From Escherichia phage KM01, in the sequence record PV018827: a stretch of DNA of 64,000 nt, one strand, 5' to 3'. Shown piece by piece: positions 20,892-21,916 of this stretch. The number at the start of each line of letters is the position of its first letter. The first letter of the stretch is position 1. The position numbers were made by a program, and so were the translations under genes. The notes below the pieces were generated by a model that worked only from the letters and a program-made list of their open reading frames with translations, ran no database searches and was not told the origin of the DNA.

Positions 20892-21272
20892 TCTCCAGTG
20901 ATTTCCATATCGGCTTTATCTCCTTTCTTAGTAAGGAGGATTGCTGGTTTATTCTTACTCTTCATATACTCAAACATGTGCATAGAGCCTCTTGACTCTC
21001 CATCCCAGAAGACTATCACTGCATCTGCATACCCCCATATCTACGTTTCTAAGTATCCCAGCCTTTTTGCCGAGAGTGTTCCATGAAGGAATGAAACGTT
21101 TGATGGGTATGTCATTGTGCTTAGCAACAGCCTCTCCGTGAAGATCTGGCCCTCTTGCACCACCTGATACAACTTCTGAAATCAGCTTGGGGATTTCCTC
21201 TGGAAGCAAAGCCCACATCTGAGTAAAAGAATGCCAGTCTATCGACCGGCTTCCTGCGATTATTACTTTCAT
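20892..21272 (-). pseudogene. DUF2493/SLOG-type Rossmann-like protein gene, apparently frameshifted
   Basis: Track ORF 20970-21272 ([10 protein letters not shown]...VVSGGARGPD...AGILRNVDMG) ends in a non-homologous tail; the expected C-terminus (YADAVIVFWDGESRGSMHMFEYMKSKNKPAILL...) is readable in an adjacent frame after a G5 run near 21029-21033. Confidence 0.4.
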
Positions 21273-21916
21273 GTAATCAATCCTTGAAACTCTTCTTTAT
21301 CGAAGTGTTTTTCTACCACATATTCATACAGATCTTTTAACTCTGCATATCTGCGGTAGAATGTTCCGTGTGACATTCCAATGGTTTTCTGAATGTGATC
21401 GTGTGGTATTCCCAAGAAGATCATAGAGAACATATTGGCTAACTTCTGAGTATCCATCGTATCACTTAAATCTTGGAAGAAGTAGAAGATACGAGACTCC
21501 ATGAATGGGTCTCCAACAGAATCTTGCTTATCCATAGCAACCTCTAAAGGACTATCAACCATATCAGGAGTACGGAACATATCAGCCTCTGGAATTGAGT
21601 AGATACGACGGTCCCCTACAGTCTGCCTATTTGAACGTATAGACCAGATAATATTCTTGACTCGATAAGTCATATGCTCTTGGTCTTTCTCATCCTCTAG
21701 GACTCTCTCATCCTGCTTAGCGAAGACAAATCTCCAAGCATTCAAGAGCACTTCCTGTGCCACATCCTCTGCTTCATGGTAATCCCTGATATCGTACATG
21801 AAGAACTTGTGAACCACTTTCCAGTTCACTTTATAAAACTCTTCATAGTTTGAGATATATTTGATTGGGATTCCATGAATTCGATATCTTGTAGGTGTTG
21901 TTTTCTTCGCCATCAT
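21269..21916 (-). CDS. phage-encoded sigma-70-family (ECF-like) sigma factor
   Basis: 215 aa; region-2-like [18 protein letters not shown]...IWSIRSNRQ and region-4 [25 protein letters not shown]. Confidence 0.65.

Follow-up and report, generated by a model that had tools for sequence, protein, structure and literature searches.

The sigma factor gp36 of phage phiEco32 and the promoters that it serves were reportedly the subject of primary studies by Savalia in 2008 and Pavlova in 2012, which are known here through later summaries. Biochemistry and cryo-EM have established that gp36 acts as a sigma factor on E. coli core RNA polymerase (Xu et al. NAR 2025, PDB 9M7Y), and gp36 and a second phage protein, gp79, co-purify with E. 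coli RNA polymerase out of infected cells (NAR 2025). [quoted passage not shown] Six gp36 promoters have been mapped, 5' of genes 6, 13, 26, 40, 58 and 68, with the consensus tAATGTAtA and a start site 6-8 bp downstream (Lavysh 2022, consensus and Table S3; Guzina and Djordjevic 2015). According to the SU10 authors, sigma-70 holoenzyme may read the middle promoters too.

In the cryo-EM open complex formed on P68, the promoter of gene 68, the N-terminal domain of gp36 reads -14A, -13A, -12T and -11G in a base-specific manner, W90 and Y83 are stacked at the fork and the DNA is melted from -11 to +2, while the C-terminal domain is bound to the flap tip and touches -37G and -34A (PDB 9M7Y). The A at -13 is contacted by S91, and mutations there lower activity; transcription by the gp36 holoenzyme has been obtained in vitro from both P26 and P68 (NAR 2025). 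Sigma region 4 is dislodged from the host holoenzyme by the small protein gp79, which also stabilises the C-terminal domain of gp36, with a four-fold stimulation of P26 and a three-fold one of P68; gp79 is in this way described as an inhibitor of the sigma-70 holoenzyme and a co-activator of the gp36 holoenzyme (NAR 2025).

Two further phage systems invite comparison. SaPh711_gp47 of Salmonella phage 7-11 is also a phage sigma factor on host core polymerase with equivalent promoter positions, but it is ~15% identical to gp36 and has the bipartite consensus GTAAtg-N16-aCTA at late promoters, and phage 7-11 is without a gp79 homologue, a middle gene class and host shut-off (Lavysh et al. 2022). 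The AsiA/MotA pair of T4 resembles gp79 and gp36 in that a small protein disables sigma region 4 and a second protein provides new specificity; in T4, however, sigma-70 is retained and remodelled, whereas in the phiEco32 type the host sigma is displaced and a phage sigma takes its place (NAR 2025).

The DNA analysed here, referred to as the window, is a stretch of 64,000 nucleotides from Escherichia phage KM01 (PV018827). By BLAST it forms a single collinear series of blocks with phiEco32, positions 3-64000 corresponding to phiEco32 12488-74940, and its identity over aligned DNA is 94.8% to phiEco32, 97.0% to Ec3-ASingh (Ec3), 93.5% to MN05 and 75.7% to TH34. Given this collinearity and identity to phiEco32, the window represents most of a Kuravirus genome. 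A 4-kb query around gene 36 matched 100 phage records, led by phiEco32 and SU10 at a top identity of ~98%, and in the best matches the gene 36 region is annotated as 'RNA polymerase ECF sigma factor'. Gene order is shared with phiEco32, the late genes occupying the + strand as far as ~18.1 kb and the middle and early genes the - strand beyond that point. The two phages are nevertheless separate isolates, ~95% identical over aligned DNA and differing by indels that comprise an HNH endonuclease (22590-23048) and a phosphoesterase (24767-25270); none of the records compared was identical to KM01, Ec3-ASingh being the nearest (97%). A search against Rfam returned tRNA as the sole match.

The gene 36 homologue lies on the - strand in a position syntenic with phiEco32, flanked by homologues of gene 35 and gene 37, which are annotated as a GTP-binding domain protein and a member of the Appr-1-p processing enzyme family, respectively. 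Its open reading frame as listed (21269-21916) had been described from the sequence as a sigma factor of 215 aa. Both the reading frame and the sigma identity hold, and it is only the length that is likely to need amending: the frame opens with ATG-ATG, and the gap between the end of the Shine-Dalgarno sequence, AAGGAAAG, and the start codon is 2 nt for the first ATG and 5 nt for the second. Since this spacing favours the second ATG, translation probably starts at 21913 and yields a product of 214 aa (21269-21913), in agreement with the phiEco32 annotation and the PDB chain. Compared with chain F of PDB 9M7Y ('RNA polymerase ECF sigma factor', 214 aa), KM01 gp36 differs at 1 of 214 residues (E=1.5e-145), and the sole substitution relative to the phiEco32 protein (phi32_36) is I125V in the linker. 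All 20 contact residues named in the structure paper for the -10 and -35 DNA, the clamp and the flap are retained, i.e. E79, H80, Y83, R84, W90, S91, S94, N95, Y186 and R187 at the DNA, D44, E47, E49, D50 and E54 at the clamp, and M138, I142, F166, L167 and F204 at the flap tip.

The earlier description of this protein as ECF-like is borne out by the two-domain architecture of the published structure; the sequence profiles, on the other hand, stay below their family thresholds. The match to Pfam Sigma70_r2 (E=0.002, 18.3 bits) is under the cut-off of 24, and a weak full-length match to TIGR02937 (23.4 bits) is under the cut-off of 42.9. Sigma70_r4 gave no match in the Pfam search even at E<=10, and homology to region 4 was likewise not seen in gp36 by Lavysh 2022. 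Despite the missing region 4 match, the 2025 structure contains a sigma-2-like fold together with a compact sigma-4-like fold (NAR, PDB 9M7Y). The protein does match PHROG 1740, 'RNA polymerase sigma factor' (E=5.6e-46). Because the curated sigma-70 profiles score below threshold, the assignment as a sigma factor rests on the near-identity to the characterised gp36.

In the published structure, group 4 (ECF) sigma factors share with gp36 a sigma-2-like and a sigma-4-like domain connected by a linker running through the active-site cleft. They differ from it in that helix alpha-1 of gp36 is rotated by ~70 degrees, its sigma-4 helix alpha-4 is shortened, and its partner is the activator gp79, with no anti-sigma factor in that role; unlike group 4 members, gp36 also falls below every curated sigma-70 family threshold. 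A promoter dominated by its -10 element, as AATGTA is for gp36, differs from typical ECF promoters. The second component of the phiEco32 system is present as well: the gene 79 homologue occupies 41475-41723 on the - strand, and in a tblastn comparison (41478-41723, - strand) all 82 residues of KM01 gp79, whose function is taken from the literature, were identical to those of phiEco32 gp79.

Four of the six published gp36 promoters are found in the window, P6 and P13 (of genes 6 and 13) falling outside it, and the tAATGTAtA element occupies all four positions, co-oriented and 5' of the orthologues of genes 26, 40, 58 and 68. The late promoter P26 is represented by TAATGTATA at 13558-13566 on the + strand, which corresponds to phiEco32 26014, in the gap separating gene 25 from gene 26; its predicted start site is at ~13573, and the motif precedes the ATG of gene 26 (13605) by 38 nt. 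P26 also has a box of putative function, TAAGACCTA, at -38 to -30 (13535-13543, + strand). This box is found 14 nt from the motif at both P26 and the late promoter P13 in phiEco32, MN05, Ec3 and TH34, and the window contains four copies of it with 0.53 expected. The middle promoters P40 and P58 carry the same 9-mer on the - strand, at 24280-24288 (phiEco32 36632, - strand) and 31004-31012 (phiEco32 42937, - strand), and both are published, also in Table S2 of the SU10 paper. The P40 motif lies 59 nt before the start of gene 40 (24220) and is invariant across 10 aligned relatives, and that of P58 lies 36 nt before the start of the gene 58 homologue (30967) and is kept although the sequence upstream of it is unrelated in MN05, Ec3 and TH34, three of the four comparators.

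The fourth of these promoters, the middle promoter P68 (35541-35573, - strand), consists of AAATGTATA at 35541-35549 and a -35 box, TTGGTAGTAGATAT, at 35560-35573. The motif is 39 nt from the start codon, and the sequence is identical to that of phiEco32 P68 from about -50 to +30; by our own numbering, the contact bases -37G and -34A would fall within the GGTA of the box. P68 was absent from the set of sites put together from the sequence because the first base of AAATGTATA is an A. The P26, P40, P58 and P68 elements are all retained in TH34 despite a genome identity of 76%.

The sequence-only reading had drawn attention to the 9-mer as a recurring promoter motif, and every coordinate that it gave for a motif site is correct. 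In the 64-kb window TAATGTATA occurs five times, at 13558(+), 24280(-), 24352(+), 31004(-) and 63505(-), with 0.61 expected, and the shorter AATGTATA 8-mer seven times with 2.65 expected. The motif is not as frequent inside coding regions as outside them: with an approximate gene map, in which ~13% of the window is non-coding and two places were adjusted by hand to the phiEco32 annotation, all five exact 9-mers (P=3.5e-5) and six of the seven AATGTATA 8-mers (P=2.8e-5) were non-coding. The over-representation is limited to the exact element. TACTGTATA, which had been taken as a second form of the motif, is found twice, at 59299(-) and, in a copy not listed before, at 24361(+), with 0.59 expected, and since two copies were reached in 9 of 100 shuffles, the class is not significantly enriched and does not stand as a motif form in its own right.

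Could the recurrence of the 9-mer be a functionless product of chance, or of the AT-rich composition of intergenic DNA? The bare hexamer AATGTA is indeed common, with 48 copies of which 37 overlap genes and 11 are non-coding, i.e. with little bias, and variants of the 9-mer with at most one mismatch are not enriched as a class in the window (24 with 19.6 expected). Against this, none of 100 dinucleotide-preserving shuffles produced five exact 9-mers, and the elements of P26, P40, P58, P68 and 24352(+) are intact in a genome of 76% identity in which the flanking spacers have dropped to 40-64%. We give this explanation next to no credence, and on comparative grounds the pattern of conservation rules it out. 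A more specific alternative is that the TAATGTATA elements are -10 regions of the sigma-70 holoenzyme, TGTATA-TA resembling an extended -10 element, so that the phage protein would not be the source of specificity. The copy at 63505, which is not conserved, does sit on a conserved sigma-70-like element, TTGCA...TATACT. However, a consensus scan found no good sigma-70 match at P26, P40 or P58 (the best in the gene 40/41 spacer reached 9/12), and published work speaks for gp36 in two ways: its holoenzyme transcribes P26 and P68 in vitro with base-specific gp36 contacts to -14A, -13A, -12T and -11G, and gp79 shuts sigma-70 transcription off while the middle and late genes are on. A sigma-70 origin of the motif is in our view very improbable.

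The evidence thus far leads us to conclude that KM01 almost certainly possesses a phiEco32-type gp36/gp79 system, in which gp36 together with gp79 would drive P26, P40, P58 and P68. The statement that phages of the phiEco32 group redirect host polymerase by means of their own sigma factor is correct according to published work, and the window belongs to that group. As gp36 and its promoters have been published for phiEco32, which is ~95% identical, what had been found from the sequence is right and at the same time not new: the system of gene 36 and the 9-mer is already known, and only the site at 24352(+) may be new. What the present comparison provides is a separation of real promoters from mere matches to the motif, and the restoration of P68 to its place among the former.

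By analogy with phiEco32, gp36 would take the place of sigma-70 on E. coli core RNA polymerase, its sigma-2-like N-terminal domain recognising AATGTA at -14 to -9 and opening the DNA from -11, and its sigma-4-like C-terminal domain sitting on the beta-flap tip and touching the -35 region. In this scheme gp79 would oust region 4 of the host sigma and steady the gp36 C-terminal domain, and by this dual action host and early transcription would be turned off and gp36-dependent transcription stimulated. Gene 36 itself would first be expressed either from a sigma-70-type promoter of its own or by read-through. Such a promoter, TGGACA-18-TATAAT, is predicted at 21964-21935 on the - strand from a consensus scan (11 of 12 positions) and sits within the end of gene 37; the sigma gene of SU10 is reported to have this promoter too, likewise with a spacer of 18 nt (SU10 paper, also Table S2). 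Since P40 is on the same strand as gene 36 and upstream of it, the gp36 holoenzyme could subsequently sustain its own synthesis in a positive feedback, and a terminator-like hairpin 3' of gene 40, at 23452-23435, may restrict read-through from P40 into gene 36. Because the mechanism rests on experiments with phiEco32, we infer by analogy its transfer to KM01, the start sites and the feedback from P40.

The six sites that had been singled out as promoters, upstream of genes on both strands, have not all fared alike. Both the promoter assignment and the position upstream of a gene hold for P26, P40 and P58, P68 had been overlooked, and the sites at 59299 and 63505 are probably not gp36 promoters. 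The site at 24352(+) is a strong candidate, but no gene follows it on its own strand. Here a perfect TAATGTATA, which corresponds to phiEco32 36704-36712, is located in the 315 bp that separate genes 40 and 41; it faces away from P40 and runs antisense to gene 41, and no plausible open reading frame was found downstream of it on the + strand. The candidate promoter as a whole, TTGGTAGTAGATAT-N10-TAATGTATATA, extends over 24328-24362 (+ strand), with a predicted start at ~24367. Its upstream half is the same 14-mer box, TTGGTAGTAGATAT, as in P68, at the same spacing of 11 nt from box to AATGTATA. Even with two mismatches allowed, GGTAGTA-N16-AATGTATA matches the window only at P68 and 24352(+), with 0.19 expected; among the matches listed from viral contigs most were unrelated contigs, presumably matching by chance. 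If AATGTA is placed at -14 to -9, the box of 24352(+) would cover -39 to -26 and place a G at -37 and an A at -34, the two bases that the gp36 C-terminal domain touches in the P68 structure.

The candidate is conserved in a discontinuous fashion. Across 10 aligned relatives, among them members of Kuravirus and of Suseptimavirus, no column varies in TGGTAGTA.AT or in TAATGTATATA, and the spacer between the two has no invariant column and varies in length by at most one base. Relative to TH34 and MN05, identity is 93% and 93% in the -35 box, 40% and 20% in the spacer, and 100% and 100% in the -10 element. The sequence separating 24352(+) from P40 is 64% and 31% identical, respectively, and the distance between the two motifs varies in the 10 relatives through a deletion of ~10 nt and an insertion of ~120 nt. 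On the sequence level, two fixed boxes with a free spacer constitute the conservation pattern that a working bipartite promoter would be expected to show. The candidate does not appear in the three promoter lists covered, Lavysh 2022 Table S3, Guzina and Djordjevic 2015 and SU10 Table S2. We therefore tentatively regard it as quite possible that 24328-24362(+) is a seventh, undescribed gp36-dependent promoter of Kuraviruses, one with a GGTAGTAGAT -35 box, that gives rise to a non-coding or antisense RNA or serves to activate a DNA element.

Transcription from this promoter would head away from gene 40 and, in antisense orientation to the operon of middle genes, pass through a non-coding block of 103 nt (24428-24530) that begins ~60 nt past the predicted start at 24367. 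The identity of this block is 93% in TH34 and 99% in MN05, and it scarcely differs among 10 relatives that represent at least two genera; its neighbours in TH34 are 45% (gene 41) and 84% (gene 40) identical. The block includes a short GC hairpin as well as a long inverted repeat, AATAGAGAAT...ATTCTCTATT. Read on the - strand, this repeat has TTTTTATCTC after it, resembling a terminator for the operon that ends in gene 41, and on the + strand G-U pairs lengthen the stem (-31.4 kcal/mol versus -26.4 kcal/mol on the - strand). Fold z-scores for the gene 40/41 spacer were unremarkable at -1.8 and -1.9 over both strands, Rfam had no match for the block, and no + strand terminator was predicted in the 3.7 kb that follow it. 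Since the block hardly varies, it does not lend itself to a covariation test.

It is also conceivable that 24328-24362(+) acts at the level of DNA, conserved jointly with the neighbouring block 24428-24530, and is not a promoter, being instead, for example, part of a replication origin, a binding site for a protein, or a sink for gp36 holoenzyme. The lack of a gene downstream on the + strand would fit such a role, as would the inverted repeat in the adjoining block and the 93-99% conservation of that block next to a gene 41 that is 45% identical in TH34. We nonetheless consider it rather unlikely, as invariant boxes at a fixed distance with a free spacer form the pattern of a bipartite promoter, and the boxes match those of P68, whose -35 and -10 contacts with gp36 have been seen in a structure. 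Nor was an origin-like switch in GC skew found near 24.3 kb, the skew simply following the direction of transcription, and a literature search for an antisense RNA, small RNA or replication origin of phiEco32 yielded nothing relevant. For the promoter reading, the + strand transcript could be an antisense or non-coding RNA, or could act by transcriptional interference or by activation of a DNA element. If active, 24352(+) would be the first source of a non-coding or antisense transcript tied to gp36, and the -35 box of P68 type would be a reused module.

The matches at 63505, 59299 and 57891 are not supported as gp36 promoters. At 63505-63513 on the - strand, TAATGTATA lies in a long non-coding spacer in the early-promoter region, and it is probably not a gp36 promoter, being not conserved even in relatives of ~93-97% identity. 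It is an extra copy specific to KM01; Ec3 has TAGCGTATACT and MN05 has GGCGTATACT at the orthologous position, and TTGCA...GTATACT is the only conserved part. Sigma-70 consensus promoters are situated just downstream, TTGACA-17-TATAGT at 63404-63376 and TTGACA-17-CATAAT at 62771-62743, and the SU10 paper reports three sigma-70 early promoters in the corresponding spacer (also Table S2). Judged from these sequences, the copy at 63505 is probably a sigma-70-like -10 element that has come to match the 9-mer by chance. A further match, GAATGTATA at 57891(-), was discarded as it is internal to the gene 116 homologue and has not been kept in TH34.

The second site set aside, TACTGTATA at 59299-59307 on the - strand, is 5' of the gene 119 homologue and belongs to the variant class that is not enriched. 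It has a C at -13, the base contacted by S91, where mutation reduces activity. Its layout is like that of the published P6, with a terminator followed by the motif and then by a Shine-Dalgarno sequence and ATG within ~12 nt. Judged on the whole-genome comparators phiEco32, Ec3, MN05 and TH34, the site exists only together with the gene 119 cassette, being present in the window, phiEco32 and Ec3 and absent in MN05 and TH34, both of which are without gene 119; a search of viral contigs for relatives of the gene 119 protein turned up, for the most part, unrelated phages with the C-terminal domain in common. A role of 59299 as a gp36 promoter thus appears unlikely. The other copy of TACTGTATA in the window, beside the + strand site (24361), is replaced by TATTGTATA in phiEco32.

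The spacer between the homologues of phiEco32 genes 40 and 41 contains a bipartite promoter-like element, TTGGTAGTAGATAT-N10-TAATGTATATA (24328-24362, plus strand), with the same boxes and spacing as the published middle promoter P68. It is oriented antisense to gene 41, and in 10 relatives the two boxes are invariant with a spacer free to vary. The element has no entry in Lavysh 2022 Table S3, in Guzina and Djordjevic 2015 or in SU10 Table S2.

A 103-nt non-coding block nearby (24428-24530) is almost invariant among the relatives examined, with 99% identity in MN05 and 93% in TH34; the neighbouring gene 41 exhibits 45% identity in TH34. 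The block holds a GC hairpin as well as an inverted repeat whose 11-bp arms enclose a 41-nt loop, and is terminator-like on the minus strand. An Rfam search with the block gave zero matches.

The late promoters P13 and P26, both used by the phage sigma factor gp36, share a second sequence, TAAGACCTA, located at -38..-30 and 14 nt from the tAATGTAtA-type motif in both promoters (in phiEco32, MN05, Ec3 and TH34). Four copies were found in the window versus 0.53 expected: one at -38..-30 of P26 (13535-13543, plus strand), one inside gene 37, where it abuts TAATGTTTA (21989-21997, minus strand), and two further copies on the plus strand (28655-28663 and 53045-53053). TAAGACCTA may be an upstream box of the late class, or a site for another factor.

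More distant relatives were found among IMG/VR contigs of 82-90 kb (L010-L012, at about 5880-7200). Their sigma factor is 53-55% identical to gp36 and carries two substitutions in the helix reading the -10 element, H80 to N and R84 to Q. TAATGTATA is missing from the region upstream of their gene 40 homologue, which has TAATGGATA instead. Sigma factor and promoter may be changing together in these phages.

The gp40 homologue (23474-24220, minus strand; PHROG 6599, function unknown) is encoded by a gene that has a gp36 promoter to itself and is followed immediately by a terminator-like hairpin (23452-23435). The protein ends in an acidic tail, ...YEDDNDSPF, which is reminiscent of the tails found at the C-terminus of single-stranded DNA-binding proteins.

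Inserted between the homologues of genes 37-39 and gene 40 is an HNH endonuclease gene (22590-23048, minus strand; PHROG 99, 5e-57), which has a counterpart in SU10 but not in phiEco32; because of this absence, 14% of the 4-kb query around gene 36 was left uncovered by phiEco32. The segment with a phosphoesterase gene (24767-25270, minus strand; PHROG 547, 4e-52) likewise has no alignment to phiEco32, and a phosphoesterase is annotated at the equivalent position in MN05 and Bas88. The gene 119 homologue (58696-59286, minus strand) is a cassette with a conserved terminator in front of it; the window, phiEco32 and Ec3 carry this cassette, and MN05 and TH34 lack it. Its product is rich in glycine, has an N-terminus resembling a signal peptide, and is annotated in phiEco32 as "agglutinating adhesin" or "tail protein". 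The C-terminal domain of this protein has relatives in many unrelated phage contigs; the gene looks moron-like.

Some 1.7 kb of non-coding DNA (61820-63479) is the counterpart of the spacer known from SU10 and phiEco32 to hold the early promoters, and has near-consensus sigma-70 promoters within 62743-63404 on the minus strand (TTGACA-17-TATAGT and TTGACA-17-CATAAT). The single tRNA gene (54577-54649, minus strand; Rfam RF00005, 51.5 bits) is the counterpart of a gene that both phiEco32 and MN05 have annotated as tRNA-Arg.
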